Shown one piece after another: positions 20,824 through 51,334 of a stretch of 64,000 nt of DNA (positions are counted from its first letter, which is position 1; every line of letters begins with the position of its first letter). The translations under genes were made by a program, and so were the position numbers. The DNA comes from a virus. The notes under the pieces are model-generated. The model was given only the letters and a program-made list of their open reading frames with translations. It did no database searches and had not been told where the DNA came from. The stretch lies in the IMG/VR virus record IMGVR_UViG_3300045988_154248; one strand, 5' to 3'.

Positions 20824-20864
20824 AACATTTCACCTGCCTTCTGAAAACAATCTTTCATTTCATT

Positions 20865-21179
20865 TCATTTTATCTCGTTTATAATGTAGTCTGTTACAAT
20901 TTTACCAATAAAATACTCATAGTCACTATCATTATAATATTTTTTAAGACCTCTGAGTACTTTTTCTGCAGATTCAAAATCAGTAGCGATATCAATAGGC
21001 AATTTCCTCTTCCATATAGGCTGTTCTATCCATTTTGGTTCTTTGACTCTAAGTATACCTTCATTGTCTCGACCATACAAATTTATTCCTTTAAGATATT
21101 CCTCTTTCTTTGTGCTCTTGTTCTTTCTTTTTATAATATAATAATCAACTGTGTCTCTATATCTTTCTTCTCTGTACAT
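20865..21179 (-). CDS. hypothetical protein
   Basis: Track frame; start moved to ATG 21179 behind AAGGAGAA. Confidence 0.5.
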   Translation of the reverse strand: MYREERYRDTVDYYIIKRKNKSTKKEEYLKGINLYGRDNEGILRVKEPKWIEQPIWKRKLPIDIATDFESAEKVLRGLKKYYNDSDYEYFIGKIVTDYIINEIK

Positions 21180-21180
21180 A

Positions 21181-21540
21181 CTATTCTCCTTGCACAAAAT
21201 CACACACATTAATTTTATCTACGCATCCATAGCAATGACAGTATTTTTCACATTTCTTGCAAACGCAACTTCTTTTTCTACACTGTTTTTGTTTGGTCCA
21301 CGCAACATTTTCTCTTTCACGCTCTTCAATAAGATCTTTATGTTTTTCTATCCATCCTAGTTCCCGTTCATTCATCTTTCGAAGAATCGTTGTTCCTTCT
21401 GGATCAAGGCACCAATAATCACCATTTAGATAATATTTGACATCATAAACCCACTTATGAATATGATAATCATATCCAAAAACAAATCCAAAACTATCGT
21501 ATTTATAAGGAAGATCTTGCCATTTGTAGTTTCTGTTCAT
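21181..21540 (-). CDS. hypothetical protein with Cys-rich C-terminus
   Basis: ORF track 119 aa; CRKRSCVCKKCEKYCHCYGCVDKINVC. Confidence 0.55.
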   Translation of the reverse strand: MNRNYKWQDLPYKYDSFGFVFGYDYHIHKWVYDVKYYLNGDYWCLDPEGTTILRKMNERELGWIEKHKDLIEERERENVAWTKQKQCRKRSCVCKKCEKYCHCYGCVDKINVCDFVQGE

Positions 21541-21578
21541 CTAATACATCTCGTTTCTATATGAAAGTAAATTTTCAT

Positions 21579-21830
21579 CTATTCATAATACCCTTCTGCT
21601 TCTAGTTGCTTTTTTAAATTTTCAAAGAGTAATGCATCATTGAGCATATTTCCGAACATAATATAGTCTCCACATATGCCATCGATTTCGTATACTTCAT
21701 AGTTTTTGTCACGATCCATTGCATAATGCTCTTTAAAATATTGAGCTGCTTCAAATAAATCATTTGACATACATTCGGAAACCATTCTTGTATTGTCTGC
21801 TGTTAATTCGTTTAAACCAAATCTTTTCAT
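21579..21830 (-). CDS. hypothetical protein
   Basis: ORF track 83 aa; ATG directly follows the TAA of the upstream reading frame. Confidence 0.55.
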   Translation of the reverse strand: MKRFGLNELTADNTRMVSECMSNDLFEAAQYFKEHYAMDRDKNYEVYEIDGICGDYIMFGNMLNDALLFENLKKQLEAEGYYE

Positions 21831-22013
21831 TTATTCACTAACCTCACTCAAATCCTCCCAGCTTCCTGGTACACCAACTCTTTTTAAGTAATCATGTCAG
21901 CCATCCACAGCCACGGATTTACATTTACACCATTTAAAGTCATGTCGTGTTTCACTCTCTATAACATCGCCGCATTTATTGCAGCGAACTTTGTTCACTA
22001 AAATTTTCTTCAT
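21831..22013 (-). pseudogene. small zinc-ribbon gene interrupted by an in-frame TGA (21897-21899)
   Basis: Own translation: MKKILVNKVRCNKCGDVIESETRHDFKWCKCKSVAVDG-TGA-HDYLKRVGVPGSWEDLSEVSE-TAA. AAGGAGGG SD. The extended frame ends exactly at the next gene's ATG. Confidence 0.5.
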
Positions 22014-22045
22014 TTAAAACCCTCCTTTGAAAGCAATTTCTCATA

Positions 22046-22222
22046 CTAAAACATCTTTAATTCTGGCATATGTTTTTGAATAGCGTTACTTCCAATATTT
22101 TCCCAATCAATTTTATTTTCTGGATTAAATAAAATTTCTCTTAATACAGAAGCTCCTCCTTGGTCATTCATTTTATCTAAAATCTCCACAGCTATAATAT
22201 TTTTCACTTCTGATTCTCTCAT
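22046..22222 (-). CDS. small hypothetical protein (58 aa)
   Basis: Own call: MRESEVKNIIAVEILDKMNDQGGASVLREI..; GGAGGTG SD. Confidence 0.45.
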   Translation of the reverse strand: MRESEVKNIIAVEILDKMNDQGGASVLREILFNPENKIDWENIGSNAIQKHMPELKMF

Positions 22223-22252
22223 AATCTACACCTCCTTAGTGAAGTCTTTCAT

Positions 22253-22516
22253 CTACTCTCTAATTGTTTTATAATAACTTCCGAACCAGACATGTACCGG
22301 AGGATTTTTCGCCCCTGGCATTAAAGAACCACTTACCATTTCCATAACCTGGCCAGAATCATTCCATCCATTTGATTCCATTTCTTTTTTATGTTCCATT
22401 CTTTCTTCTTTTGAGTCGTAATAATACTGTTCTATAATCTCTGTGTACTTATCTACGCAGTTATCTCCATCCCACACAAATTTTGTTGTATTATCTTTCA
22501 TTTTAATTCTTTTCAT
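22253..22516 (-). CDS. hypothetical protein
   Basis: ORF track 87 aa. Confidence 0.5.
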   Translation of the reverse strand: MKRIKMKDNTTKFVWDGDNCVDKYTEIIEQYYYDSKEERMEHKKEMESNGWNDSGQVMEMVSGSLMPGAKNPPVHVWFGSYYKTIRE

Positions 22517-22553
22517 ATAATCATCTCCATTCTATATTAAAAACAACTTAATC

Positions 22554-22781
22554 TCATAACATTACCCATAGATTTCTCCCATAATATTCTCTTCTTATAT
22601 GAGAAATATCATTGTCAATTTTTGATAACTCAATCTTTTCAAAAGTTACATTTTTGCAGCCATCCATAGTTCTGTTTCCAAATCTATTTTTAGTACATTC
22701 AATTCCATTTGATGATTCCTCAACCATAACAGAAGTCACTTCTCGTAAATGTTTGATTTTTTGTGTTTCTTCATATGTCAT
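22554..22781 (-). CDS. hypothetical protein
   Basis: ORF track 75 aa. Confidence 0.5.
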   Translation of the reverse strand: MTYEETQKIKHLREVTSVMVEESSNGIECTKNRFGNRTMDGCKNVTFEKIELSKIDNDISHIRREYYGRNLWVML

Positions 22782-22828
22782 ATTATTCGCATCCTTTACA
22801 ATGAAAGCAATTTTTCATTTACCTCATT

Positions 22829-23521
22829 CTATTCTTTAAAATCTACAGGATTTTCAAGTTTCAAAATCTCATCCCTGTGTTCTACCAACGCTACACTTGC
22901 AATAGCATTAATCTTGTTCTGACAGAATGATTCGATTTCTCCTTTTGCTTCCATTACAGTTTTATCCATCTGTTCATTAAACGAATCAGCTATAAAATCC
23001 ATATTACATCCAAGATCCATGCTTAATTTTCTAAGCTTAGATATTATAGATTCTTTATCTGCCTTTGTTAGTGCTTTTTTCTGAGAAAATAAATCGGTTA
23101 CATCTTGGATTAACTGCTGTGATTCATTCATTGTATCTTCTGTTTTACTTTTGAATTCATCAGCGAACTGTTTCCTTTTGCTGATAAAATCACATTCAGG
23201 AATTTTGCCATCTTTTTCTGTATATCTAATAGTACAAGGTATTCCATTCCCTTGACCAAAAGATGTAATTGCCTCTGCAAACTGTGAATAACTCATCTCT
23301 ATTTCTACAATAGGACTTTTACCATAAACCCAATCTCTATTTAATCCACGTTCTATATCAGCATGTTTTACTTCCATTGTAATCACGTTACTATGTTCAA
23401 TACTACTTCCAAACAAACTTCTTTTACAACCGTTAGCTCTATTAAACATGATCGTTCCATATGCCGGATGGCTTGTTTTTGTTCCAAATTTTGTTTCTTC
23501 TACTTTATATTCTTTTTCCAT
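22829..23521 (-). CDS. hypothetical protein (230 aa)
   Basis: ORF track; co-directional; no family recognised. Confidence 0.55.
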   Translation of the reverse strand: MEKEYKVEETKFGTKTSHPAYGTIMFNRANGCKRSLFGSSIEHSNVITMEVKHADIERGLNRDWVYGKSPIVEIEMSYSQFAEAITSFGQGNGIPCTIRYTEKDGKIPECDFISKRKQFADEFKSKTEDTMNESQQLIQDVTDLFSQKKALTKADKESIISKLRKLSMDLGCNMDFIADSFNEQMDKTVMEAKGEIESFCQNKINAIASVALVEHRDEILKLENPVDFKE

Positions 23522-23576
23522 ATATGTTACCTCACTTCCTATTAGATTATTCTCCGTTTAAAGTAGGAATAAATCG

Positions 23577-23792
23577 TCATTTTATCTTGTCTGCTATTTC
23601 TCTAATTTTATCTGCGTTTAAAGGTGCTACTGCATCTGCGAGCTTTCCTTTTGTTTCCTTATAATCTTTGCTATAAGGATCAAATCCAGAAAGACAACAC
23701 CAATTATCTATTTCTTTTTTTAACTTTGCAACTTTAAAACATGCTTCATTTTGTTATTTAATTTTATTCTGTATATACTTGGGTATTTCCAT
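23577..23792 (-). pseudogene. small gene interrupted by an in-frame TAA (23754-23756)
   Basis: Own translation from ATG 23792 (GGAGAATAA SD): MEIPKYIQNKIK-TAA-QNEACFKVAKLKKEIDNWCCLSGFDPYSKDYKETKGKLADAVAPLNADKIREIADKIK-TGA. The 58 open codons after the stop contain no Met. Confidence 0.45.
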
Positions 23793-23836
23793 ACGATTTA
23801 TTCTCCTTTTCAACATCTGAAAGAAAGTTAATTTTG

Positions 23837-23932
23837 TCACCATTTAATTACATATTTTAGCTTTCCATCTTTAAACTGATACGTTCTATTTCCGACTGTC
23901 ACAAAATCATATTTATATTTTTTATTATTCAT
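23837..23932 (-). CDS. small hypothetical protein (31 aa), paralogue of 25105-25200
   Basis: Own call: MNNKKYKYDFVTVGNRTYQFKDGKLKYVIKW. A second copy reads MNNRKYKCDFVTVGNKTYQFVNGKLKWIIKW. Confidence 0.45.
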   Translation of the reverse strand: MNNKKYKYDFVTVGNRTYQFKDGKLKYVIKW

Positions 23933-23943
23933 AAAAATACCTC

Positions 23944-24216
23944 TTATTTCAACGCACCAAGATTTCTCTTGTAACTACGTTCTACTCTACCCCATAATTC
24001 TTTCAAGTAATTTTCTGCATCAACTTTAGCTTCATCAATATTAGATGACTTCATTTTAACTTTTAATTCTGTCGCTGCATCAGTCAACTGAAAATCCTTA
24101 TATCTTAATACTGCTACATTTTCACTTATTTCTTCGATGAATAATGCACTATTTTCTCCATATTCTTTCCCATTATTTTCGTTATGTATAATTTTAACTA
24201 ATTTAATTGTTTTCAT
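23944..24216 (-). CDS. hypothetical protein
   Basis: ORF track 90 aa; its C-terminal ~20 codons recur as a truncated remnant at 25211-25270. Confidence 0.55.
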   Translation of the reverse strand: MKTIKLVKIIHNENNGKEYGENSALFIEEISENVAVLRYKDFQLTDAATELKVKMKSSNIDEAKVDAENYLKELWGRVERSYKRNLGALK

Positions 24217-24574
24217 GTTGTTGTCTAATGTTCATACAACCAATCAAAGCAGAATTTAAGGACTCAAAAGATTTATTACTATCCTTATAATCAATATATC
24301 CATGCCATAAAAGTTTATTTGTAAAATTTCTTTCAAATTCAACAATCTGATAATTATCAATGCAATGTATATCAATTACTCTACCCCATGGAAATTCTTC
24401 TTTGATCAATTTGATTTTTTCTTCGTGTGTTGTTTCTTCTATATAATCTTCAGTTATTATATCTAAATTATTAGATGCATCCCAATTGATAGGACGAAAA
24501 GCAAAATCTCCACCAATATGAATAACTGTTCCGACTATCTCTTTATATTTTACAATGTCTCCAGCTTTTATAAT
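24203..24574 (-). CDS. hypothetical protein; reading frame open well upstream of the track start, no canonical start codon
   Basis: Track ORF 24203-24409 begins at TTG, but the frame stays open to 24583 (IKAGDIVKYKEIVGTVIHIGGDFAFRPINWD..). The only SD (GTGAGGT) is followed by ATT 24574 / ATA 24571. Confidence 0.45.
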   Translation of the reverse strand: MIKAGDIVKYKEIVGTVIHIGGDFAFRPINWDASNNLDIITEDYIEETTHEEKIKLIKEEFPWGRVIDIHCIDNYQIVEFERNFTNKLLWHGYIDYKDSNKSFESLNSALIGCMNIRQQHENN

Positions 24575-24588
24575 ATCTACCTCACTTT

Positions 24589-24792
24589 CTATGCTATCAA
24601 TTCAGCATTTTCATCTATTTTAACAAACTCATTTTGCTTAAACTGTTCTAATGCTATATAAATTTCTGAAATAGACTTACACCAAACAGTATCTTCATAT
24701 CCAACAAAATGTACACTGAAAATATTATCAGGATGCTCGAAGATATTATCTATAAGATTTCTGTCTTGTGTTTGCAATACAATTTTCGACAT
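24589..24792 (-). CDS. hypothetical protein
   Basis: ORF track 67 aa; GGAGGT SD. Confidence 0.5.
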   Translation of the reverse strand: MSKIVLQTQDRNLIDNIFEHPDNIFSVHFVGYEDTVWCKSISEIYIALEQFKQNEFVKIDENAELIA

Positions 24793-24814
24793 ATAAACAT
24801 ACCTCCAGTAAAAA

Positions 24815-24928
24815 TGTGGGCGACAGGACTCGAACCTGTTCTTACTTCTGTCGGCTTGTTTCCGATTTACGAGACTTGCACTCGTTTTACCTCGTCATGT
24901 CAACGCCAGCTTATGCAAATACACCCAC
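24815..24928 (-). tRNA. tRNA-like element, atypically long (114 nt); possible degenerate or insert-bearing tRNA
   Basis: Minus strand: 7-bp acceptor stem GTGGGTG/CGCCCAC (one G-U). Canonical T-arm ACAGG-TTCGAGT-CCTGT. Discriminator A; no encoded CCA. Candidate anticodon hairpin ACGAG-TGCAAGT-CTCGT would read CAA but has G at position 33. About 40 nt more than any standard tRNA. Confidence 0.4.
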
Positions 24929-24942
24929 TTAAAACCGTCACT

Positions 24943-25068
24943 CTAAAATAATTCTTTTAAATGTTTTACCGTTAAGTCCTTGTATTCGTCTACATAATAT
25001 TCATATCCCATATCTGAAAAAAGTTCTATTCTATCTAAATCAACTTTCAAATTACGAATTATATTCAC
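24943..25068 (-). CDS. small hypothetical protein (41 aa, GTG start)
   Basis: Own call: (M)NIIRNLKVDLDRIELFSDMGYEYYVDEYKDLTVKHLKELF; GAGGAGA SD. Confidence 0.4.
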   Translation of the reverse strand: MNIIRNLKVDLDRIELFSDMGYEYYVDEYKDLTVKHLKELF

Positions 25069-25104
25069 AAATATCTCCTCTCTCCCTTTGAAAGTTAAAT
25101 TTCA

Positions 25105-25200
25105 TTACCATTTGATAATCCATTTTAATTTTCCGTTTACGAACTGATATGTTTTATTTCCAACTGTCACAAAATCACATTTATATTTTCTATTATTCAT
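25105..25200 (-). CDS. small hypothetical protein (31 aa), paralogue of 23837-23932
   Basis: Own call; lies inside the second copy of the ~190-bp direct repeat. Confidence 0.45.
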   Translation of the reverse strand: MNNRKYKCDFVTVGNKTYQFVNGKLKWIIKW

Positions 25201-25210
25201 AAGTACCTCT

Positions 25211-25315
25211 TTATTTTAATGTATCAAGATTTCTCTTATAATTACGTTCTACTCTACCCCATAACTCTTTCAACTCTCTATCTGTTTTATCTTTAAAGAA
25301 ATTTTTCAAAAATAA
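25211..25315 (-). pseudogene. truncated remnant of a 23944-24216 paralogue
   Basis: Frame reads ..KDKTDRELKELWGRVERNYKRNLDTLK-TAA, compared with ..ELWGRVERSYKRNLGALK in the full-length gene. No ATG; bounded upstream by TGA. Confidence 0.5.
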
Positions 25316-25341
25316 TCATCTCCTATCATAAAAATTAAATC

Positions 25342-25562
25342 TTAGATTTGATGTGATTTTACATAATCCCAAGTTACAATTTCTGGTAGTTTATTGTATT
25401 TAAAAATTGTAACATTTTTACACCATTGCCGAATTAACTCATTTGCCTTGATTTTACACTTCTTTAAATCGTTTCCAAAGTCGCTTATAATCCACGGTTC
25501 TATTTTAGAAAATCCATTATTATACTTATCATTATAAGCAACTGAATATATTTCAATTTCAT
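25342..25562 (-). pseudogene. small gene whose ATG is out of frame with its long ORF (1-nt indel or frameshift)
   Basis: GAGGAGGA SD, then ATG 25562 opens a 20-codon junk frame. The adjacent frame encodes 72 codons (EIEIYSVAYNDKYNNGFSKIEPWIISDFGNDLKKCKIKANELIRQWCKN..) with no Met, Val or Leu start. Confidence 0.45.
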
Positions 25563-25602
25563 AAAAGTATCCTCCTCTTCATGAAAACTTGGTTTCATTT
25601 TA

Positions 25603-25824
25603 TTATTCTTCAAATTTTCTGTTATTTATAATGTCATATTTTCCATAATTTTGTTCAATTCCATTCCATAAAAATGTAAGTTTTCCATCTGGATATAGAC
25701 TTATACAAGTATTCGTAACTAGATCTGGATTTTCTTTTGAATAATAATACATTCCACCTTTTTCATGTTCGTACATTTGTACATATGTATAACCGTCCAA
25801 ATATATTTCTTTTGGATATTTCAT
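25603..25824 (-). CDS. hypothetical protein
   Basis: ORF track 73 aa. Confidence 0.5.
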   Translation of the reverse strand: MKYPKEIYLDGYTYVQMYEHEKGGMYYYSKENPDLVTNTCISLYPDGKLTFLWNGIEQNYGKYDIINNRKFEE

Positions 25825-25897
25825 ATAATCACCTCAATATTATATTCTCTATTATACCAGAAAAGGAACTGCCTTACGACAATTCCACTTCAAAAAA

Positions 25898-26140
25898 TTA
25901 TTTTACTTTTACAATTAAAATAGCGGTTCCATTATCTACATCCGGATAAATAGAAATTATTTTCATATTCCAATATTTTTCCGGCACAGAAAATTTTGTG
26001 TCGCCAATTCCTTCAATCAATCCTTGGTATAAAATATTTTCTTTTCTAAGCACATTATCATCAGTTGTAATTACAACGGAGCCTTCCCATATTGCATCAT
26101 CAAATTTCAAATCTGCCAATTCCATATATACCGCCTCCAA
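25898..26140 (-). CDS. hypothetical protein
   Basis: ORF track 80 aa. Confidence 0.5.
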   Translation of the reverse strand: MEAVYMELADLKFDDAIWEGSVVITTDDNVLRKENILYQGLIEGIGDTKFSVPEKYWNMKIISIYPDVDNGTAILIVKVK

Positions 26141-26161
26141 ATAAATTTTATCTTACAAACT

Positions 26162-26371
26162 TCATCGATCTTCGCTAACATTATAATAGGCATTATCGCT
26201 GCCGGATACTTCTTTCATTTTCCTTTCAATCAATTCTTCTCCATATCCGCAATGACATGATAAAAAATTATACATATCGAGATCTGATCCACAATAAGAA
26301 TAAACATCTCTCAGGGATATTTTTCCATCATCGTACAGTTCTTCAATATTGTCGAAATTTAATTCAGGCAT
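26162..26371 (-). CDS. hypothetical protein
   Basis: Track frame; start moved to ATG 26371, an 8-nt overlap with the upstream gene. Confidence 0.5.
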   Translation of the reverse strand: MPELNFDNIEELYDDGKISLRDVYSYCGSDLDMYNFLSCHCGYGEELIERKMKEVSGSDNAYYNVSEDR

Positions 26372-26597
26372 TTTTAATAGCTCCTTTCGCTTGCTTGTAA
26401 TCAGAATAAAACATATCATATTCTTCTTTATTGCAAACAGCTACACCAGCACACTCTTCTTCACACTCTAATTTCCATCCTTTGTCACAAAGAATATCAT
26501 ACATTTTATTAAATTTCTCTTCTTCATTAGAATTATAGGTTATATATGCTTCTCTATAATCGTGTTCTTCGTTTTTTCCTATATATTGACATTTCAT
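26364..26597 (-). CDS. hypothetical protein
   Basis: ORF track 77 aa. Confidence 0.5.
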   Translation of the reverse strand: MKCQYIGKNEEHDYREAYITYNSNEEEKFNKMYDILCDKGWKLECEEECAGVAVCNKEEYDMFYSDYKQAKGAIKNA

Positions 26598-26630
26598 AAT
26601 AGCCTACCTCTCATGAAACAATTCTTTCAG

Positions 26631-26813
26631 CTACCGTTCGCATTCCATGCAAACGTCTTTCCCATTATAGTCATCTGGCTGCTCATAATGTCCAGGAAAA
26701 CAATGCATACAACTATAACATGATTGATCCCATCCCATTGGACATTTCTTTGTCTCTTTTGCTTCATGCGTATAAATATATTTTTCTTCATAATAACTCA
26801 TAGGTTTTGACAT
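26631..26813 (-). CDS. hypothetical Cys-rich protein
   Basis: ORF track 60 aa; CPMGWDQSCYSCMHC..CMEC. Confidence 0.5.
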   Translation of the reverse strand: MSKPMSYYEEKYIYTHEAKETKKCPMGWDQSCYSCMHCFPGHYEQPDDYNGKDVCMECER

Positions 26814-26814
26814 A

Positions 26815-27123
26815 TTATACTTCCTCTTTTTCCGCTAAATCGTAATCTGAACCATTCACAAATTCTCCATCTGTATTTGTGTCACAATATTCAAGTGCAT
26901 ATTCTTCTACATCAACGCAATCAGAATGCTCGTCATATGTACATTTATATTTTGCCAATTCTGCTTTTGCTTCATTGAGCTGATCGTATGTCCATCGTTT
27001 TAATTCTTCTGGATCAGTATTTGGTCCATAAATACAATCTCCTTCAGAGTAATTTTTGAATTGCTTTTTCGTATAAGATCCTTCAGCATGTCGTAAAATA
27101 ATTGTATTATAATATTCTCCCAT
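26815..27123 (-). CDS. hypothetical acidic protein
   Basis: Track frame; start at ATG 27123 behind GGAGGAAAA. Confidence 0.5.
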   Translation of the reverse strand: MGEYYNTIILRHAEGSYTKKQFKNYSEGDCIYGPNTDPEELKRWTYDQLNEAKAELAKYKCTYDEHSDCVDVEEYALEYCDTNTDGEFVNGSDYDLAEKEEV

Positions 27124-27192
27124 TCTATTTTCCTCCAACTTTTATATAATTATTTATATTATATCATATTCCTCAGCAATAACATAGTTTTT

Positions 27193-43332: not shown

Positions 43333-43363
43333 TTTCTTTACTCCTTTTAAAATCTTAGTTTCT

Positions 43364-44291: not shown

Positions 44292-44360
44292 ATCTTACCT
44301 TTCCTTTCCAATGAAACACGCATTTTTTATATTATATGTCCATTGTATTATTTGAAATAA

Positions 44361-44666: not shown

Positions 44667-44815
44667 AAGTTAAGTCCACCATCAATTTCAGGAACTCTTC
44701 TATATGCATCTCTGTGAATACATTTTTCTCTTTCACATTCTGTGCAATCACATTTCTGATACTCTTCATAAGTCATTTTCCAATTTGTTTCTGCAAATCT
44801 TTCTCTTGTCATCAT
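44642..44815 (-). CDS. small Cys-rich protein (57 aa)
   Basis: Own call: MMTRERFAETNWKMTYEEYQKCDCTECEREKCIHRDAYRRVPEIDGG..; GGAGAG SD. Confidence 0.45.
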   Translation of the reverse strand: MMTRERFAETNWKMTYEEYQKCDCTECEREKCIHRDAYRRVPEIDGGLNLCPNLKGE

Positions 44816-44830
44816 ATTGTTCGCTCTCCT

Positions 44831-45280
44831 TTAAACAAAATCTTTTGCAATATCTTCTCGACTCCCACAACTTGAACAACCTTCTGTGCCATGCTTTTCA
44901 AGTATCTTCCATATTGCATTTTCCTCTTCTTCTAAAAGATTAAAACCTTCCCAATATTCTACAGTTCCGTTCTTATGTGTTTGAAGAATTCCGCTAATCC
45001 ATGTATCATTTGTCATTTTTCTTACATAATCTTCAGGATTTTTGAGTGCAATATAATCTGGTTTAATCATCACAACTGCACCATATCCATTTACACACAA
45101 GCCAAAAGCAATATCTTCTGCATAAGATTTACTATCAAACACCTTTGCTTCCTTGTTTGATTCCCACTTTGCAACATTTGTATTTGTATCAATGCTTGTT
45201 ACATATTTAATCGTATTTACGTTATCATTACCGCCAATAACTCCTATTACATATTTAATTTTCTTTGCCATATTTATCAT
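44831..45280 (-). CDS. hypothetical protein
   Basis: ORF track 149 aa. Confidence 0.55.
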   Translation of the reverse strand: MINMAKKIKYVIGVIGGNDNVNTIKYVTSIDTNTNVAKWESNKEAKVFDSKSYAEDIAFGLCVNGYGAVVMIKPDYIALKNPEDYVRKMTNDTWISGILQTHKNGTVEYWEGFNLLEEEENAIWKILEKHGTEGCSSCGSREDIAKDFV

Positions 45281-45324
45281 CCTTTCTCTTTAAGAAATCG
45301 TTCTTTCATTAGGTATCATGCAAT

Positions 45325-45594
45325 CTATAATTCCAAAATATTTATCATTGAATCCTTATAAATCTGTGTTCCGTCTGTTCTTATTTCTTTTACAAATTCT
45401 ACAAGTGGAATTCTTTTATTTCTTTCCATTTGCCATGAGTACATTTGTATCCAATCGCTTAACAGATTAAACATTGAATAATCATAAAATGGACAGCCCT
45501 TTGGTTTTACACTTTCCAAAAATTCTTTGGTCTTTGTCAATATTAATACATGAGTTGTGCCATTAAAATCAACTATAATATAATTACCTTCCAT
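45325..45594 (-). CDS. hypothetical protein
   Basis: ORF track 89 aa. Confidence 0.5.
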   Translation of the reverse strand: MEGNYIIVDFNGTTHVLILTKTKEFLESVKPKGCPFYDYSMFNLLSDWIQMYSWQMERNKRIPLVEFVKEIRTDGTQIYKDSMINILEL

Positions 45595-45607
45595 TTACAT
45601 CGCTTCC

Positions 45608-45886
45608 TTATGTTGTCACAAATACTTCATTTCCATTTGTATCAAAATATCTTTCATGAAATTTTCCATCCACATAATCAATATCCATTCTAACGTCTTC
45701 GCAACCTGTAATAAGTTCCGCATATCTCTGATCTGCCAAAGCTTGCCAGCTTTTAATTCCGTGGTCACTCTTTACATTCTTAACAAGTTTACGAACTTCA
45801 TCATAAAATGTTTCTGCATTTGTAAGTTTATTCAGTTTATCAATTCTTGTACAATCTCTCTTTTCAAAAGCAAATTTGTATGTCAT
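45608..45886 (-). CDS. hypothetical protein
   Basis: Track frame; start at ATG 45886 behind AAGGAG. Confidence 0.5.
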   Translation of the reverse strand: MTYKFAFEKRDCTRIDKLNKLTNAETFYDEVRKLVKNVKSDHGIKSWQALADQRYAELITGCEDVRMDIDYVDGKFHERYFDTNGNEVFVTT

Positions 45887-45888
45887 AT

Positions 45889-46136
45889 TCACTCGCTCCT
45901 TTTAAACCACTCAAATTCATTTGTCACATAATTCCATCTAATAAATCCATTTTTATCTTCTCTTATATTTTCACGATTTTCTAATATACATTTGAGCAAT
46001 TCTTTTGCCAACTTGTCATTCAGTCGTTTTTTATGACATTTCAAATCATTGTTAACATAGTCAAACACTTCGGAAATATCTGAATTGCCTTTGTGTATCC
46101 TCTAATAAATTCACCAGATAATTTTTCAATTTTCAT
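45889..46136 (-). pseudogene. small gene split by a frameshift near 46085-46095
   Basis: ATG 46136 gives MKIEKLSGEFIRGYTKA.., which then stops after 31 codons. The adjacent frame continues ..KGNSDISEVFDYVNNDLKCHKKRLNDKLAKELLKCILENRENIREDKNGFIRWNYVTNEFEWFKRSE-TGA (ends 45889) and has no start of its own. Confidence 0.5.
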
Positions 46137-46138
46137 AA

Positions 46139-46510
46139 CTATCCCTCCATTGTGTAATACAGATATTTGTATCTTGTATCATCCACATTTCCATTCCAAT
46201 CAATATCAAGCCATTTCAGTTCTACAACCAGGATATTGTCATCTGTTGCATAGCACTTTATAAAGGTATGTGGTCTTACATCTTTGAGTTCCAAATGACT
46301 ATCTCCATCAAATACTAAATGATTATTTGATTTTGCCACACATGTTCTTGCATGTGATTTATAATTTTCAAGCCTTCTTTGTCTTACAGCACCAATTTCT
46401 CCATCATCCATAGCAGGGCTAATCCCAATCAATAATGACTTACCACTTGTAATTCTTCTAACAAATTCTGCCTTACTAATCTCTTTAATGTTATCTCTCA
46501 TATCAATCAC
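46139..46510 (-). CDS. hypothetical protein
   Basis: ORF track 123 aa. Confidence 0.55.
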   Translation of the reverse strand: MIDMRDNIKEISKAEFVRRITSGKSLLIGISPAMDDGEIGAVRQRRLENYKSHARTCVAKSNNHLVFDGDSHLELKDVRPHTFIKCYATDDNILVVELKWLDIDWNGNVDDTRYKYLYYTMEG

Positions 46511-46519
46511 CCTCGCTTT

Positions 46520-47158
46520 CTACGCTATCTGCTTTGCTATATCTTCAATGTTTCCATTCATTACAATTACCGCATCTTTGTTGTCAGGATACTCATTCAT
46601 AAAATCTCTCAATCCCTCAAACTGCTTATTATCTGCATTTTCAATCATCTGCCTTACATTTTCGTTATGCAACTTAATCAAATAAGCTTTTTTATAATAC
46701 TGTTTGAATAAAAGATTTTCCTTTTCGCAATACTGCTTAATCACGTCAATCTGTCTCTGTTCCTCTTTCTTGATTACTTCGACTCTTGCCTTCTCATTAG
46801 CTTCTGCCTGTTCTTTTCGTTTGCGATTTCCAATTAGATAATTGAATAATGAATCTGATGCACATAAACTTTTATAAACCGCCTTTTCAATGTCGTATTC
46901 ATCTGGTTTGTCTTTTTCAATCCACCACAAGAAATTATCAATTGTTCTGTTGAAATTCTCTTCAAAGATGCACCTATTGCCAAGCTTGATATCTAAAATA
47001 TTCTTTCCATCTTTTTCGATCCGTAATGATGTATATACGTTTTCATCCGGTTTATCTGGATAAATACTCCATGTATACCTATCTTGTGTTCCATATACAA
47101 TCATTCCATATGCTTCATAAATCCGTTTCTCTTCATTTTTCAAATATACAAGTCCCAT
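46520..47158 (-). CDS. hypothetical protein
   Basis: ORF track 212 aa. Confidence 0.55.
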   Translation of the reverse strand: MGLVYLKNEEKRIYEAYGMIVYGTQDRYTWSIYPDKPDENVYTSLRIEKDGKNILDIKLGNRCIFEENFNRTIDNFLWWIEKDKPDEYDIEKAVYKSLCASDSLFNYLIGNRKRKEQAEANEKARVEVIKKEEQRQIDVIKQYCEKENLLFKQYYKKAYLIKLHNENVRQMIENADNKQFEGLRDFMNEYPDNKDAVIVMNGNIEDIAKQIA

Positions 47159-47177
47159 TTTTTACTTGCCTCCTACA

Positions 47178-47456
47178 TCATTCTAAATTTGCATTTGTAT
47201 ATTTCAACCATTTTCCTGTATAAGTTCCGTTTAATCTCTCTTCGAAAGTTCTTTTTCTCATTCCGTAGATTTCTGTAGCAACTTTATACATGTCATATAC
47301 AAGATCCTTTTTCATATCTACAATCATAAAATCTTTTGGGTTATCCATACTATCCAATACATACTGCATGAAGTCTCTAAAAGTAACCAATCTATTTGTC
47401 GTACACCAAACAATTACTTCATCTTTTTCCTTCGTTACAAATTTTACTATCTGCAT
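47178..47456 (-). CDS. hypothetical protein
   Basis: Track frame; start at ATG 47456 behind GGAAGGAGTG. Confidence 0.5.
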   Translation of the reverse strand: MQIVKFVTKEKDEVIVWCTTNRLVTFRDFMQYVLDSMDNPKDFMIVDMKKDLVYDMYKVATEIYGMRKRTFEERLNGTYTGKWLKYTNANLE

Positions 47457-47542
47457 AATATTCACTCCTTCCATTACAAAAAGCAGACACAATTCTGCAT
47501 CTGCCTTATTATTCTCCGCTCATGAAACTAATATTTTATGTA

Positions 47543-47887
47543 CTACCACTCAGGTTCTTTATCTGTTAAACCCAAGTAAAACGCATCCTTTTCGCTGTTC
47601 CAAAAATGTTCTTGCAAATCAGCAAACGATTTAGTTCCATTTTTCAACGCCTCATAATCTGCAAGTACCATATCATCTGTGTAATTTGCATATTCATTTC
47701 TGGCAATAGCAAGTCTGAACGTTTCACCCTTTCTTATCCAACCAAATCTACTTGTATTTTTCGCTATCGGATAAGCACTAATTGTATACCCATGCAAATC
47801 TGGATATTCTTCTGAATTTTCACTATGCCAATCTTCAAGCTGTATTTTTGTTCCATCTGCCATTACTGCTCTATCAATAGTCTGCAT
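47543..47887 (-). CDS. hypothetical protein
   Basis: Track frame; start at ATG 47887, just after the upstream stop. Confidence 0.5.
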   Translation of the reverse strand: MQTIDRAVMADGTKIQLEDWHSENSEEYPDLHGYTISAYPIAKNTSRFGWIRKGETFRLAIARNEYANYTDDMVLADYEALKNGTKSFADLQEHFWNSEKDAFYLGLTDKEPEW

Positions 47888-47888
47888 A

Positions 47889-48068
47889 TCAATCACTAAT
47901 CCTTTCTCTCCACTTTTTAATTCGCACAGGGTAAATTACGTTTTCTCTGTATGTTTTCAATTGTGCTTTTGCATCTGCTCTATCTTCACAATTGCACTCA
48001 ATATCCCATCCATAACCACAATTTCCTTCGATTGCATAACAATCTTTCGTCTTTCTTTTATATGCCAT
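47889..48068 (-). CDS. hypothetical protein
   Basis: Track frame; start at ATG 48068. Confidence 0.45.
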   Translation of the reverse strand: MAYKRKTKDCYAIEGNCGYGWDIECNCEDRADAKAQLKTYRENVIYPVRIKKWRERISD

Positions 48069-48070
48069 AA

Positions 48071-48475
48071 TCAATATACCTCTTCATAAAATTTAATTGT
48101 TCTTTCCTTTTCAGCTTTATATTTCGCTTTATCAGTAAATAATGTGAGATAAATATCTCCCTCACAATATGTAAATACCGCCATCTGTTCATCTGAATAA
48201 GCATAAGAGCTATAACCATTTACCTGCACTAAATCGAATTTGCATTTCTTTGCGAACTGATAGCTCAAATCAGACATCCAATGTCCACTCAACATATAGT
48301 TTCCATTTCTATCTTCTGTCTCTTCCATGAAGTTTACGTTCGCAATCCGTTTTGTATCTTCGTTCAATGGATACACTGACAAATCTAAATCGGCAATGTC
48401 ATATTCTTCTTTATCTGGGATTCTTCCAGTTTCTCTAATCATCTGATAGTATTTGTTTCTTGGTATATATTTCAT
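48071..48475 (-). CDS. hypothetical protein
   Basis: Track frame; start at ATG 48475 (TAATG overlap with the upstream stop). Confidence 0.5.
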   Translation of the reverse strand: MKYIPRNKYYQMIRETGRIPDKEEYDIADLDLSVYPLNEDTKRIANVNFMEETEDRNGNYMLSGHWMSDLSYQFAKKCKFDLVQVNGYSSYAYSDEQMAVFTYCEGDIYLTLFTDKAKYKAEKERTIKFYEEVY

Positions 48476-48918
48476 TATTTCATCCTCACTTTCATCATTT
48501 CTTTTCTGTATTCTTTTATCTGTTCCAAAGTCAACCATTCCGGTTTCTCTTCCAGTGATTTCCAAATCCGTTCCATTTCGTCACAGATTGCTTCTACACT
48601 GCCACCCCACAGATGACCTTCATAACCGTTTCCATTTCCGAGGAAATAGTTACAATCACTTCTCATTCTGTCTAATAACATGTAATCCTTTTCTCTTGGA
48701 TGCCGAATAAAAGGATCATCGCACTCAACTGGTTCTGTTACTCTATTACATGGCTCACCACAGATTTCATCCCATTCGGTTCTATAAGCACCTGTGTAGA
48801 GATTAAGTCCGTTTTCTCCATTGTTCTCGTCAAAATACAACTTCCCATTTTCATCTTCGTAGCATGGAACTTCCATGTATCCACCAAACCCAACATATTT
48901 TACTTTCATACTTTTCAA
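48475..48918 (-). CDS. hypothetical protein
   Basis: ORF track 147 aa. Confidence 0.55.
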   Translation of the reverse strand: MKSMKVKYVGFGGYMEVPCYEDENGKLYFDENNGENGLNLYTGAYRTEWDEICGEPCNRVTEPVECDDPFIRHPREKDYMLLDRMRSDCNYFLGNGNGYEGHLWGGSVEAICDEMERIWKSLEEKPEWLTLEQIKEYRKEMMKVRMK

Positions 48919-48927
48919 CCTGCCTTT

Positions 48928-49137
48928 CTATCCGATCCACTGTTTTGTTACTGTGTTATAAATCGCCCCGTTTGCATCCTGATATTCTTTGTATCTGGAA
49001 TATGTAAACCGTAAACATTTATGACCGTTCGCATAAACAATGGTCTTATTTCCATTATCAATGGCAAATCTTTCACGCCACCCAGCAGCTTCCCATGCTT
49101 CTTTCATTTCACCTCTGAATCTTCTTGCCTTCTCCAT
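48928..49137 (-). CDS. hypothetical protein
   Basis: Track frame; start at ATG 49137 behind AGGAGGAG. Confidence 0.5.
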   Translation of the reverse strand: MEKARRFRGEMKEAWEAAGWRERFAIDNGNKTIVYANGHKCLRFTYSRYKEYQDANGAIYNTVTKQWIG

Positions 49138-49139
49138 TT

Positions 49140-49394
49140 TTACTCCTCCTGTTTTCTCTTCATAATTCCATTTGCTGCCTGTACACATCCGTATAACCAA
49201 CCATTCAGGTAATCAATGTTGTAGCAATACTGCGTCCAATCTCCGTTTTTTGCCCTTTCTTCACTGGTAAAAACATAAAATCCATTACCATAATCAGCAT
49301 CTTCAATTTTAATAAAGTCGAAGTTTGCCTTATAAGACCGCAAGTTATCTTTAATAATTTCTTCCTGACGTTTTGTCATCTTCTTTTTCTCCAA
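49140..49394 (-). CDS. hypothetical protein
   Basis: ORF track 84 aa. Confidence 0.5.
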   Translation of the reverse strand: MEKKKMTKRQEEIIKDNLRSYKANFDFIKIEDADYGNGFYVFTSEERAKNGDWTQYCYNIDYLNGWLYGCVQAANGIMKRKQEE

Positions 49395-49400
49395 TTAAAT

Positions 49401-49434
49401 AAGGCAGCTAGGTATTTATTCTCCTAACTGCCTT
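49401..49434 (-). terminator. putative terminator hairpin
   Basis: 12-bp stem aaggcagctagg / cctaactgcctt (one mismatch), 10-nt loop; a similar hairpin lies at 49698-49727. Confidence 0.4.
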
Positions 49435-49441
49435 GCTGCGT

Positions 49442-49663
49442 TTAATTACTATGAATCGAATAGCGAGCATTCACTTCTTTCAAACATTCCATCATCAAAC
49501 CGAAATCATTAAATCTGTCAATATCTTTAATAACAGCTGTACTACCACATACATTAATAAAAATGCATTTTGCGTTTTCACAATAATCTACGGTCACTCT
49601 CTTATCATCCGTATACTCATTCGCTTCGAACATCTCATTCATTTTCTTAATCCAGTCATTCAT
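49442..49663 (-). CDS. hypothetical protein
   Basis: ORF track 73 aa. Confidence 0.5.
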   Translation of the reverse strand: MNDWIKKMNEMFEANEYTDDKRVTVDYCENAKCIFINVCGSTAVIKDIDRFNDFGLMMECLKEVNARYSIHSN

Positions 49664-49761
49664 GATATTTTCCTCATTACTTTCTTGTAATAAAACAGAT
49701 AGTTAGGTTTTTATTCTCCTGACTACCTTTGTTTTGCGTTGTTTTGTTTAGTTGCTAGAGC

Positions 49762-50046
49762 TTACAGACACTCTGCAAAAATCTGAAGGTTAAATTTGTT
49801 GCTTAACTTTTCAATGGTCATATCTTTGAGTTTCTTTGCAAGAGATAATTCATTTGCATCGTAAGTCCATTCCATTTCGTATCCATTTGGTGTCGCAGGG
49901 AATTTCACTTCTACACAAATTCCATTTCCATAATCCGTAACTTCTGTTACAGTTCCAAAGAAACTTTTATGATACCGTACACCATATTCTTCTTCATACT
50001 TCGTATCTGGGTTAGATACATATACTAAATCACCAACTTTAAACAT
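49762..50046 (-). CDS. hypothetical protein
   Basis: ORF track 94 aa. Confidence 0.5.
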   Translation of the reverse strand: MFKVGDLVYVSNPDTKYEEEYGVRYHKSFFGTVTEVTDYGNGICVEVKFPATPNGYEMEWTYDANELSLAKKLKDMTIEKLSNKFNLQIFAECL

Positions 50047-50078
50047 TTGCCTTCACTCCTTTTCTTGAAATCTTAATT

Positions 50079-50384
50079 TCATTGGGTTATGTTATCAAAA
50101 AAATCTAATATCTTCGTTTTTTCATAATACTGTTTCCAGTTACCGCTTAAAGTTACGCCTATACAAGTACACGGATCTGTATTATGACTTTTCGGTATCT
50201 GAAAAACGGCAATACATTCATCGTCAGTAACAGTCATATCCGAAAATATCAACTTTTCTAAGCTACATTTTGTTGCGCAGTTTTCTTTTACACCTGTACA
50301 AATTCTGTCATACTCCGACTTACACTCATCAAAAGATTTTCCTTTAATCACAACAGAATGATTTAAAACTTTAATTTCTGTCAT
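50079..50384 (-). CDS. hypothetical protein
   Basis: ORF track 101 aa. Confidence 0.5.
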   Translation of the reverse strand: MTEIKVLNHSVVIKGKSFDECKSEYDRICTGVKENCATKCSLEKLIFSDMTVTDDECIAVFQIPKSHNTDPCTCIGVTLSGNWKQYYEKTKILDFFDNITQ

Positions 50385-50420
50385 ACAATTATACCTTTCC
50401 TATGAAACACGTATTTCTAA

Positions 50421-50951
50421 CTACTTGCTAATATAAATTCTTACTGAGTTTTCGTCATCAAATGCCTTTATGACATCATCTTCCGTTTCTAAGAATGTAT
50501 AATTGATTCTGTATCTAATTCTTGCATTACTATAAAGTTTCTTGTAGAAATAATCGTCAAACTCCTTCATTGTCATTTCCGTTGGCTTGTCATTTTCAAA
50601 TACTGTCACACCATCAATTCTATTGAATGACACATATTTTCCAGAATGAATTAACTCATCGTAAGTAACTGACTTTTTCAGCATTCTCAACAAGTGCATT
50701 CCATAATCATAATAATTACAATATCTACTTCCGATTTTCAAGTCAAAGCCCTCTGATTCTTTGGATGGTTTACTATCATTTTTGAATCCTTCTGCAAACT
50801 TGATAAAATCTTCTTTTGTATAAATTTTCCCTTGCCAATCATCGTTTTTTCTGCCTTCATTGTCATTGTTACAACCTTGTAAACTCAGATGTAAAATTCT
50901 CCCATCTGATAAGTTCACAATTTTTGTTTTAAAGATAATACCATATCCCAT
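50421..50951 (-). CDS. hypothetical protein
   Basis: ORF track 176 aa. Confidence 0.55.
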   Translation of the reverse strand: MGYGIIFKTKIVNLSDGRILHLSLQGCNNDNEGRKNDDWQGKIYTKEDFIKFAEGFKNDSKPSKESEGFDLKIGSRYCNYYDYGMHLLRMLKKSVTYDELIHSGKYVSFNRIDGVTVFENDKPTEMTMKEFDDYFYKKLYSNARIRYRINYTFLETEDDVIKAFDDENSVRIYISK

Positions 50952-51015
50952 ATAATCACCATTTGTCTTTCTGATCTTCCTATGAAATGTTGCTTTCTTA
51001 CACTAAGCTATAATT

Positions 51016-51243
51016 TTAGTAACTTTTAATTGAGCCATCTGCGTTTACATGCCATTTTTCAGATGGTCTAAAGTTCTTTCCGTTGTTGATATGCAAAATC
51101 CATATGTCACCCTTCGGACAAAACCAATTAGCATGTTCCATCCGATGCTCCATACATTCTTCAAAAGAAGAAAATATATCTACAACTTCACCGCTTCTTT
51201 CGCTTGTTTCAACATATATTGCATAAAAATCAAACTTAACCAT
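51016..51243 (-). CDS. hypothetical protein
   Basis: Track frame; start at ATG 51243 behind GGGAGAATA. The track start would bury the TGAAA-N6-TTTCA motif inside the ORF. Confidence 0.5.
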   Translation of the reverse strand: MVKFDFYAIYVETSERSGEVVDIFSSFEECMEHRMEHANWFCPKGDIWILHINNGKNFRPSEKWHVNADGSIKSY

Positions 51244-51334
51244 TATTCTCCCTTCTGAAATTTCTCTTTCATCCGATGAATCCATAGAAATAACCAAAAA
51301 CTTTTTCTGGTTTATGAATAGTTACTGTGCTACA

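Follow-up and report, generated by a model that had tools for sequence, protein, structure and literature searches.

A dispersed TGAAA-N6-TTTCA palindrome at gene junctions of a mosaic accessory array in a human-gut phage, with a possible operator role

Throughout the window, by which we mean the full 64,000-nucleotide (nt) stretch of IMG/VR record IMGVR_UViG_3300045988_154248, we analysed a 16-bp palindrome of the form TGAAA-N6-TTTCA, of which ~25 copies stand between the small accessory genes of one leftward array. Comparison with related genomes shows that these 16-mers behave as a fixed scaffold, in which each site is individually addressed by its own six-nucleotide spacer (we therefore call the sites anchors and name them by spacer) and at which gene replacements, deletions and at least one inversion have had their end points. 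As to what the sites do, we lean, with somewhat less than even confidence, toward distributed operators for one phage-encoded symmetric dimer.

A palindrome repeated at the junctions of small minus-strand genes

Fifteen exact copies of the motif are present in the window against 0.49 expected, a number attained in none of the 100 dinucleotide-preserving shuffles that served as the null for this count, and 36 copies are present when up to one mismatch is allowed (12.7 expected). Fourteen of the exact copies fall within 20842-51271, the same number that an earlier note on this DNA had given. The remaining exact copy is intragenic, lies outside that range and is probably a chance match that does not belong to the motif system. 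Six is the sole enriched spacing, with 15 copies in the window and 118 in the loci compared with it, while all other spacer lengths from 0 to 14 give 0-2 and 0-7, respectively. The exact count, the count with up to one mismatch and the restriction of the enrichment to N6 rule out a chance origin of the motif.

Placement was assessed against gene calls made with a simple heuristic that combines open reading frames (ORFs) with Shine-Dalgarno (SD) sequences, and the 70 nt 5' of each minus-strand gene were inspected. Between 19 and 52 kb only 15% of the sequence is non-coding, and this share holds all 14 exact copies and 24 of the 27 copies with up to one mismatch; the motif is thus not equally frequent in coding sequence, and its placement between minus-strand genes is as first described. 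All 14 exact junction copies occupy a short minus-strand intergenic spacer and, with the exception of the copy at 37460, lie just 5' of a GGAG-type SD. To these can be added 11 one-mismatch junction copies (Table 1), where at least seven had been reported. Read on the minus (coding) strand, the order is stop codon, motif, SD and ATG, a layout that the gene calls confirm. Over the distinct downstream flanks the end of the motif mostly stands 11-29 nt before the start codon (three outliers stand 37-44 nt before it), and the motif is mostly separated from the SD by 0-16 nt. The upstream stop was said to lie often within the motif; 12 of 44 distinct left flanks use the TGA of the motif as their stop codon, and in 17 more the stop stands 0-3 nt before the motif.

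The junctions of the array are of three kinds, namely coupled junctions with a gap below 20 nt, motif linkers of 27-50 nt, and longer spacers that contain a terminator or promoter. Apart from the one intragenic match, the motif is absent from 1-19 kb of the window; it is likewise absent from locus L020, which covers 10 kb past the left end, and is at chance level in L021 (L-numbers denote the loci that we compared with the window). The plus-strand block, which had been described as lacking the motif, gives 10 exact copies over 80 loci of at most 22.6 kb each, a number that we estimate to be about chance. The regions examined amount to about half of the genome, and within them only the ~32-kb array has the motif above chance level.

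A logo of 61 dereplicated exact sites places information outside the motif only at position -1 (A in 52 of 61) and position -2 (A or G), a conservation that partly reflects the abutting stop codon, and downstream of the motif the SD alone is conserved. The palindrome ends at 16 bp, and its spacer is free except that C is preferred first and A last on the coding strand, giving a consensus of (A/G)A-TGAAA-N6-TTTCA with AAA-N6-TTT as the most conserved core. Substitutions mirror the dyad: among distinct single-mismatch sites that are followed by an SD and a start codon, variants number 10 and 10 at positions 1 and 16, 6 and 9 at positions 2 and 15, and 3 and 2 at positions 5 and 12, with none at positions 3, 13 and 14 and two at position 4. 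Changes compatible with wobble pairing are not preferred (8 versus 5). A first count had suggested covariation between the arms (29 symmetric Watson-Crick double variants versus ~11.5), but this signal is gone in a contingency test, which finds no association between paired positions; the excess arose because the outer positions are the tolerant ones. As RNA, the stem has 5 bp and an energy of -0.5 to -1.8 kcal/mol (about -0.8 kcal/mol overall) with no T-run, is present in 44% of in-context minimum-energy folds and has a mean pair probability of 0.36, so that energy and context folding rule out a stable RNA hairpin. Rfam, searched with the window at gathering thresholds, returned no match. Arms conserved in sequence at a strictly kept distance, an unconstrained spacer, tolerance that mirrors the dyad and pairing that is not selected are together the pattern expected of a symmetric dimer that recognises duplex DNA, and not the pattern expected of a structural RNA.

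Signals of transcription are largely missing from the sites. The logo contains no -35 or -10 element, and sigma-70 promoter-like and terminator matches are not above shuffles, their association with the sites being limited to a few upstream hairpins; a TATAAT-like hexamer stands just before two sites, 37460 and a two-mismatch site preceding gene 43725-44291. The earlier view that the motif is not a sigma-70 promoter stands in that we found no positive promoter evidence, but the argument then given for it, that a transcript would lose the SD, is wrong because the SD is downstream of the motif. That it is not a terminator can be retained as argued, given a 5-bp stem that is not G+C-rich and the lack of a T-run. 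We also considered an upstream ORF, in which the A before the motif would open an ATG-AAA mini-ORF, and set it aside on inspection by eye because the frames are inconsistent.

Conservation in related phages, which the earlier note had proposed as a check, is extensive. All loci around the 256-amino-acid (aa) gene carry 5-12 exact copies per 20 kb, and for the 212-aa gene the surrounding loci of close relatives hold 45 copies in 152 kb. Enrichment persists in relatives at 73-80% protein identity, both for exact copies (57 versus 1.6 expected) and with up to one mismatch (295 versus 77). Many anchors in these diverged relatives are imperfect (with arms such as TTTAC, TTTCT and AGAAA), the outer two positions of each arm varying and AAA-N6-TTT remaining stable. 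The AGCACA anchor has the right arm TTTCG in L003, L007 and L017, where it lies upstream of the homologue of window gene 31926-32129, and also in L001, L009 and L013; in some genomes its spacer is reduced to 5 nt (TGAAA-GCACA-TTTCG), which shows that single anchors decay by point mutation and 1-nt deletion yet stay at the junction.

A variant of the motif occurs farther afield. Clostridioides phage pCD1602_4 (CP069348.1; genome of 132.5 kb), the nearest deposited relative by the 687-aa protein (60% aa identity), has no TGAAA-N6-TTTCA; it carries 21 copies of TAAAA-N6-TTTTA (L078-L080), where 5.4 are expected and other spacings give 0-8, and at least 10 of these are in the stop, motif, SD and ATG arrangement. 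Only four proteins are detectably common to this phage and the window. No enrichment was found in phiCD119, an ordinary C. difficile phage, and this makes a general host signal unlikely; taken together, the two phages point to a phage-lineage factor instead, and the class of element extends beyond the window's phage group. Both arms of the pCD1602_4 variant are shifted alike (G to A, C to T), as expected for a symmetric binder with altered specificity, and retention of pairing would look alike. Examples in pCD1602_4, whose record is unannotated, are at record positions 95818, 98031, 98185, 100369, 101863, 102053 and 115448, and the spacer there usually starts with T. A literature search for the string TGAAA-N6-TTTCA gave no match, and the paper on phiCD5763, a 'big plasmidial' extrachromosomal phage, makes no mention of such a repeat (PMC5786514); pCD1602_4 equals phiCD5763 in genome size and may belong to that type.

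Individually addressed anchors at mosaic breakpoints

In blastn comparisons of the window with its relatives, homology blocks end repeatedly at motif coordinates, and an identical 16-mer, spacer included, has flanks that are unrelated at the nucleotide level in different genomes. For the anchor CCAAGT, for example, the first 19 loci combine 4 classes of left flank with 7 classes of right flank in 10 ways, the larger set gives 6 and 9 classes, and up to 11-12 alternative flanks per side are seen overall. Site pairs with only one flank homologous share an identical spacer in 128 cases versus 13, and in 93 pairs the 16-mer is shared with neither flank homologous. Each spacer is unique within its genome, and across genomes the spacers follow one order (CAAGAT, CGATGA, CGTAGA, CGGAAA, AGCACA, ACCGCA, CAAGGA, GAATTG, CCAAGT, TTTAAC, TGACGT, AATTGC, ATTTAC, GATTGT, CAGACA), only one pair being found in both orders, with 2-9 alternative contents in the intervals between successive anchors. 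Because this rank order is kept while the flanking genes change, the 16-mers are the fixed scaffold of the array. Alignments through an anchor are rare, and there were too few of them for a test of purifying selection on orthologous sites.

Breakpoints in the window fall at 14 of 15 motif junctions versus 21 of 48 other junctions (Fisher p = 7.5e-4), and among 19 loci a mean of 6.1 break at each motif junction versus 1.6 at each of the others. This enrichment could alternatively arise if every functional module begins with the motif and selection keeps breaks between modules. Where the stretch from one anchor to its neighbour is deleted, the left flank and spacer of the first adjoin the right flank of the second, as where AGCACA is joined to the gene that normally follows ACCGCA. 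The inversion is found in L001 (4772-5659), where one anchor, present in two inverted copies (TAAAA-TGCGAG-TTTTA ... TGAAA-CTCGCA-TTTCA), encloses a two-gene module of 0.85 kb (201 aa and 69 aa) in inverted orientation. Other genomes have the forward orientation: L028 for both genes, L042 for the 201-aa gene and L075 for the 69-aa gene. The junction in L028 is what an inversion ending within the 16-mer would predict. Also in L001, one palindrome serves two divergent genes, with the motif, SD and ATG in order on both strands of a 60-nt spacer.

One anchor is repeated within the window itself. The AATTGC pair at 22028 and 22802 is in direct orientation, 774 bp apart, and brackets a three-gene module (22046-22781); it could be a trace of insertion or unequal exchange at the anchor.

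Operators and rival explanations

Our favoured reading, which we hold tentatively, is that the sites are distributed operators for one phage-encoded symmetric dimer. One site heads each independently translated gene module, and one dimer would control the whole array from many points. With no recognisable promoter overlapping the sites, a roadblock or occlusion of ribosome binding is the likelier action; the bound dimer would block elongating RNA polymerase or occlude the adjacent ribosome-binding region, in the manner of a stoperator. The conserved site would at the same time be a selected boundary and the only sequence common to otherwise unrelated neighbours, and the sites would act as module boundaries for that reason. 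Palindromes of 5-6-5 form with an uncontacted spacer are typical of Xre/Cro-type helix-turn-helix (HTH) or winged-helix dimers, examples being ACAA-N6-TTGT of phage 434 and TGTGA-N6-TCACA of CRP. Candidate trans factors are the 371-aa Xre-type HTH protein encoded immediately upstream of the array and, in the array core, the 87-aa LexA-domain protein (Table 1); co-occurrence of the latter with the motif is uninformative, since both are limited to the same clade. Further HTH proteins of the window are a small HTH_26 protein near 56.2-56.6 kb and a 109-aa protein (18736-19065). The earlier note had raised an operator acting genome-wide, and of this the operator survives as the best-supported mechanism (through N6, the free spacer and the symmetric substitutions), while genome-wide action gives way to one ~32-kb array.

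Several observations weigh against operators. The binding protein is represented by sequence-based candidates only, and with no recognisable sigma-70-type promoter at the sites a repressor acting at a promoter is unsupported and the roadblock or translational mode has to be assumed. Only ~30% of the array's genes have a site. The spacer is compositionally asymmetric on the coding strand (C at 1, A at 6), which could come from a strand-specific function or from common ancestry of the sites, and imperfect anchors persist in diverged relatives, so a perfect palindrome is not strictly required. Genome compaction alone would also place the motif beside the SD. Precise breakpoints (at stop, SD and ATG) occur at many junctions without the motif too, several of which carry degenerate copies, and four-gamete quartets number zero over 49 anchors and 253 instances, a comparison of low power.

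The same position beside the SD would suit an RNA-level operator, a hairpin 5' of the SD that is bound by a phage protein repressing or timing translation, or a processing site, which we judge unlikely. The T4 RegA/gp43 operators and the dual DNA/RNA binding reported for the anti-CRISPR regulator Aca2 would be possible parallels. There is one site per module, with the SD almost always within 0-16 nt, even in long spacers (33343, 51256); the upstream stop often overlaps the left arm, where terminating ribosomes would melt the hairpin; and both the coding-strand asymmetry of the spacer and the L001 palindrome, in motif-SD-ATG layout for both divergent genes, fit as well. The hairpin is marginal, however, by the energies and folds given above; it is the sequence of the stem that is kept and not its pairing, with no covariation, no favouring of wobble changes and a dyad-symmetric pattern; a fixed loop length with a free loop sequence runs contrary to most RNA-protein hairpin recognition; and Rfam holds no match. 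The hairpin or processing site that the earlier note had listed is accordingly disfavoured. A promoter for a phage-specific transcription apparatus, with a start just past the palindrome and a leader of 10-25 nt containing the SD, would resemble promoter-early stem-loops in function, and the objection about a lost SD does not apply to it. The motif heads separately inherited modules, three sites (51256, 33343 and 42144) directly follow terminator-like hairpins with no space for another promoter, and the 60-nt divergent spacer between two SDs in L001 has the motif as its sole conserved element. Such a promoter is nonetheless very improbable, as the sites have no sigma-70 likeness (a -10 box needs A2 and T6, neither of which the left arm has) and no conservation at a fixed distance up- or downstream, a palindromic core would fire both ways, the distance to the start codon is variable, and the sequence examined yielded neither a phage RNA polymerase nor a sigma factor.

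Breakpoints raise the possibility of recombination sites, in which 5-bp arms around a 6-bp crossover spacer would be used by the Xer-like or the serine recombinase of the array. By this logic, unique spacers would let only allelic sites of co-infecting relatives recombine, without self-deletion, much as heterospecific lox/FRT sites do in engineered cassette exchange. Inverted arms with a 6-bp spacer fit the core geometry of tyrosine-recombinase sites (spacers of 6-8 bp), two recombinases are conserved within the array, and spacers are unique per genome and collinear between genomes; flank exchanges keep the spacer identical in the 128-to-13 proportion given above, breakpoints lie at the edges of the 16-mer, and both the inverted L001 module and the AATTGC-bracketed module can be cited in support. 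Against this, the conserved arms are 5 bp plus 1-2 bp versus 9-13 bp in known tyrosine and serine recombinase sites, and the SD-adjacent fixed position goes unexplained. The Xer-like recombinase and the site co-occur in the close clade, but a homologue of the recombinase in L022 (41% identity) has no palindrome array within 10 kb on either side. The protein scores 40.8 and 29.4 bits with the NCBIfam integron integrase models (cut-offs 265 and 435) and likewise falls short of the NCBIfam Xer cut-offs. Breakpoints at many junctions without the motif are equally precise, the four-gamete count described above is zero at its low power, and same-spacer direct or inverted pairs within genomes are at chance level (4 versus ~7 expected), the three cases at known anchors being anecdotal. 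We consequently regard recombination sites as improbable, and rate a little lower again the notion that the array is a natural multiplexed cassette-exchange rack through which co-infecting relatives swap slots of (probably counter-defence) accessory genes. The recombination hotspot of the earlier note is supported by genome comparison in the narrower sense of fixed, individually addressed anchors at mosaic breakpoints; frequent reciprocal crossing-over at anchors is not demonstrated, the low-power comparison having turned up no four-gamete quartets. Equally remote as the promoter is a passive linker with no trans factor, whereby one ancestral leader spread by cassette duplication and was kept as short homology or by hitch-hiking with the SD. 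The similar spacers CGATGA, CGTAGA, CGGAAA, CAGACA and CAAGAT suggest common descent, imperfect forms survive in diverged relatives, and the negative four-gamete result suits this account; but the half-sites are invariant over ~49 differently spaced sites while the spacers have fully diverged, N6 is strictly maintained, the consensus is kept at 73-80% identity and a symmetric variant exists in another phage, all of which argues for selection on the arms.

Genomic setting and known systems

Table 1. Coordinates of the palindromic sites and of neighbouring features in the window
Feature	Coordinates	Strand	Spacer or sequence	Context
Motif-bearing leftward array	19451..51271	-		~32 kb, ~90 small genes
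Exact site	51256..51271	-	GAGAAA (coding strand)	12 nt 5' of ATG of 51016-51243; terminator-like hairpin upstream
One-mismatch site	50983..50998	-	AGAAA..TTTCA	upstream of ORF 50421-50951
One-mismatch site	50403..50418	-	AGAAA-tacgtg-TTTCA	18 nt 5' of gene 50079-50384
Exact site	50066..50081	-	TTAAGA	19 nt 5' of gene 49762-50046
One-mismatch site	47523..47538	-	TAAAA-tattag-TTTCA	anchor TATTAG, exact in close relatives; terminator hairpin after
One-mismatch site	45293..45308	-	TGAAA-gaacga-TTTCT	anchor GAACGA, exact in relatives; 21 nt 5' of 44831-45271
One-mismatch site	43701..43716	-	AGAAA-ttcgca-TTTCA	22 nt 5' of gene 43364-43678
One-mismatch site	42144..42159	-	TGAAA-tagcaa-TTCCA	anchor TAGCAA; terminator-like hairpin upstream; mosaic breakpoint
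Exact site	40745..40760	-	CAAGAT	anchor; 26 nt 5' of gene 40401-40718; breakpoint, 9 loci
Serine recombinase (Resolvase + Recombinase domains)	39541..40389	-		inside array; candidate only if the motif were a recombination site
One-mismatch site	39204..39219	-	AGAAA-cgatga-TTTCA	anchor CGATGA; upstream of ORF 38942-39166; breakpoint
Exact site	38729..38744	-	CGTAGA	anchor; 18 nt 5' of gene 38372-38710; breakpoint
One-mismatch site	38132..38147	-	TGAAA-tagaaa-ATTCA	18 nt 5' of gene 37808-38113
Exact site	37460..37475	-	CGGAAA	anchor; abuts stop of 37477-37629; atypical, start codon 77 nt downstream; breakpoint
Exact site	36238..36253	-	AGCACA	anchor; 14 nt 5' of gene 35897-36223; breakpoint, 11 loci
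Exact site	33683..33698	-	ACCGCA	anchor; 14 nt 5' of gene 33438-33668
Exact site	33343..33358	-	CAAGGA	anchor; 17 nt 5' of gene 32990-33325; SD-adjacent within 112-nt spacer, downstream of terminator-like hairpin
One-mismatch site	30933..30948	-	TGAAA-gtcgaa-TTTGA	exact in L026; 14 nt 5' of 256-aa gene 30148-30918; 2 nt separate that gene from the LexA-like gene after it
LexA DNA-binding (winged-helix) domain alone, 87 aa	29882..30145	-		conserved array core; this phage group only; candidate trans factor
Xer-like tyrosine recombinase	28216..29220	-		conserved array core; candidate enzyme only if the motif were a recombination site
Exact site	26614..26629	-	GAATTG	anchor; 16 nt 5' of gene 26364-26597; breakpoint
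Exact site	25582..25597	-	CCAAGT	anchor; 19 nt 5' of small ORF
Exact site	25089..25104	-	TTTAAC	anchor; 20 nt 5' of gene 24943-25068; breakpoint
Exact site	22802..22817	-	AATTGC	anchor; 20 nt 5' of gene 22554-22781; breakpoint
One-mismatch site	22028..22043	-	TGAGA-aattgc-TTTCA	direct repeat of AATTGC anchor; 14 nt 5' of 21897-22013
Exact site	21562..21577	-	ATTTAC	anchor; 21 nt 5' of gene 21181-21540
Exact site	20842..20857	-	GATTGT	anchor; 18 nt 5' of gene 20572-20823; breakpoint, 14 high-scoring-pair ends
One-mismatch site	19451..19466	-	TGAAT-cagaca-TTTCA	anchor CAGACA, exact in relatives; 13 nt 5' of 19273-19437; last site of array
Exact match, intragenic	10801..10816			outside array; probably chance
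Xre-type HTH (N-terminal) + DUF6551 protein, 371 aa	52985..54100	-		just upstream of array; candidate trans factor

No GenBank phage is similar to the window at the DNA level, and no relative was found among GTDB genomes. Exact or near-exact copies of window proteins are encoded on many human-gut metagenome contigs of 100-209 kb that IMG/VR classes as viral (the 256-aa protein is listed in 597 indexed blocks), and the window belongs to a human-gut phage of ~200 kb, for which strong GGAGG-type SDs and a G+C content of 33% point to a Firmicutes host. Its gene content includes toxin-antitoxin-like genes, the Xer-like tyrosine and serine recombinases, DNA methyltransferases, an IS701-like insertion sequence and Xre-type HTH proteins, classes of gene that suit an episomal temperate life style.

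Several further features lie in or near the array. An IS701/IS4-family transposase gene (34685-35872, plus strand) occupies a G+C-richer segment of ~1.3 kb (34588-35906) that is missing in relatives, whose homology blocks stop at 34587 and restart at 35907; terminal inverted repeats of ~30 bp (TATAAATGAGCAAAT...TTGCACAAA) bound the segment at both ends, and it looks like an insertion specific to the window genome. Exactly at the downstream end of the array stand a PemK/MazF-type toxin gene (minus strand) and a divergent Xre-type HTH gene (plus strand), together spanning 18167-19065. Downstream of the array there is an NAD-related cluster (6433-10514 and L020) with NAMPT, NAD synthase, phosphoribosyltransferase, isochorismatase-type and Macro-like genes, an RNA 2'-phosphotransferase-like gene lies at 19734-20267, and among relatives L001 has an AcrIC5-like gene (4215-4418) and L020 a Lar-like gene for restriction alleviation; these genes suggest that this arm of the genome holds a counter-defence arsenal. 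In L003 (12761-14812) a C5 DNA methyltransferase contains an intein (683 aa versus 321 aa), and in L026 (9784-10902) an IS605 OrfB/TnpB-type gene is inserted beside the LexA-like gene.

On a smaller scale, a lookalike of the 3' part of a tRNA (GGTTCGAGTCCTGTC...CCA; ~24795-24850, minus strand) lies upstream of gene 24589-24792 and may be a tRNA fragment; ARAGORN found no tRNAs in the window. A local duplication (23823-24006 and 25090-25273, ~83% identity) includes a 31-aa ORF and its leader. The string GGAGAATAA stands at or just past many gene 3' ends (for example 33375-33383, 47500-47515, 49400-49420 and 49700-49720), often preceding a terminator-like hairpin or the next start codon, and may be an arrangement of SD plus stop or a second repeated junction element.

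Large phages carry arrays of small, fast-changing accessory genes whose control and reshuffling are poorly understood. Here, one short cis-element would give one factor a handle on at least ~25 points of a 32-kb array and would provide addressed module boundaries as well. Modules joined by conserved linkers were already envisaged in the modular theory of phage evolution, and the sites make such linkers testable in an abundant human-gut phage, with the variant motif of pCD1602_4 as a cultivable system. The anchors are also usable as landmarks with which to align and catalogue the variable gene content of this phage group.

We file the motif with the dispersed intergenic dyad repeats of phage genomes. 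Closest in role are the promoter-early stem-loops (PeSLs) of T4-type phages, which are repeats at small-ORF junctions in hypervariable regions, are composites of a terminator and a sigma-70 early promoter, and mark where indels and replacements end (PMC2839356, PMC4122927). The window motif also lies between small ORFs and also marks end points of indels and replacements, but it consists of a 16-bp palindrome alone, without a promoter consensus and in most cases without a terminator, and its copies have their own spacers and a conserved rank order; the lack of a promoter and of a stable stem means that it cannot be classed as a PeSL. The nearest match in distribution is with the stoperators of the cluster A mycobacteriophages L5 and Bxb1, asymmetric 13-mers that are spread genome-wide in a single orientation to transcription and are bound by the phage repressor to stop transcription. 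Both systems place tens of copies in short intergenic gaps of operons, away from promoters; unlike stoperators, the window sites are dyad-symmetric, have a variable spacer and form one array (over about half of the genome), and being symmetric and local they are not stoperators. Both PMC4351075 and PMC3203893 make mention of the L5 and Bxb1 stoperators.

In form, the nearest counterpart is a 17-bp dyad repeat that Cluster O mycobacteriophages carry, 5'-TGTTCGGNNNCCGAACA, of which more than 30 copies occur genome-wide, many of them in small ORF gaps; one gene insertion in that cluster has a 17-bp direct repeat on its flanks (PMC4351075). Invariant inverted arms around a variable centre are common to the two, whereas the sequences are unrelated, the geometry is 7-3-7 there versus 5-6-5 here, the host phylum is another, and neither a link to the SD nor collinear copies are reported for Cluster O. 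In Cluster K mycobacteriophages, some of the genes have conserved start-associated sequences (SAS/ESAS) directly before their start codons (PMC3203893). They resemble the window motif as conserved sequences just 5' of start codons and differ in that the window motif is separate from the SD and palindromic. In the Cluster K study some of them reportedly have upstream inverted repeats, and the element, said to be asymmetric and to hold the SD, was reportedly proposed to act in translation initiation.

With the operators of phage 434 and of the CRP/FNR family the window sites have in common half-sites of 4-5 bp, a 5-6-5 form over 16 bp that sets the centres of the half-sites one helical turn from each other, an unconstrained spacer, tolerance of substitutions that is symmetric, and no selection on pairing; those operators differ in overlapping promoters, in occurring in few copies per phage and in their half-site sequence. 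Integron attC sites are 57-141 bp long and move with their cassette. Like attC and lox/FRT sites, the window sites are palindromes at cassette boundaries, in a one-directional, largely promoter-less array near a tyrosine recombinase, but they have short arms, the recombinase is not IntI, and, because they stay in place while the genes change, they are not attC sites. What is distinctive, and new here, is that the copies are individually addressed and collinear across a population of highly mosaic gene content.

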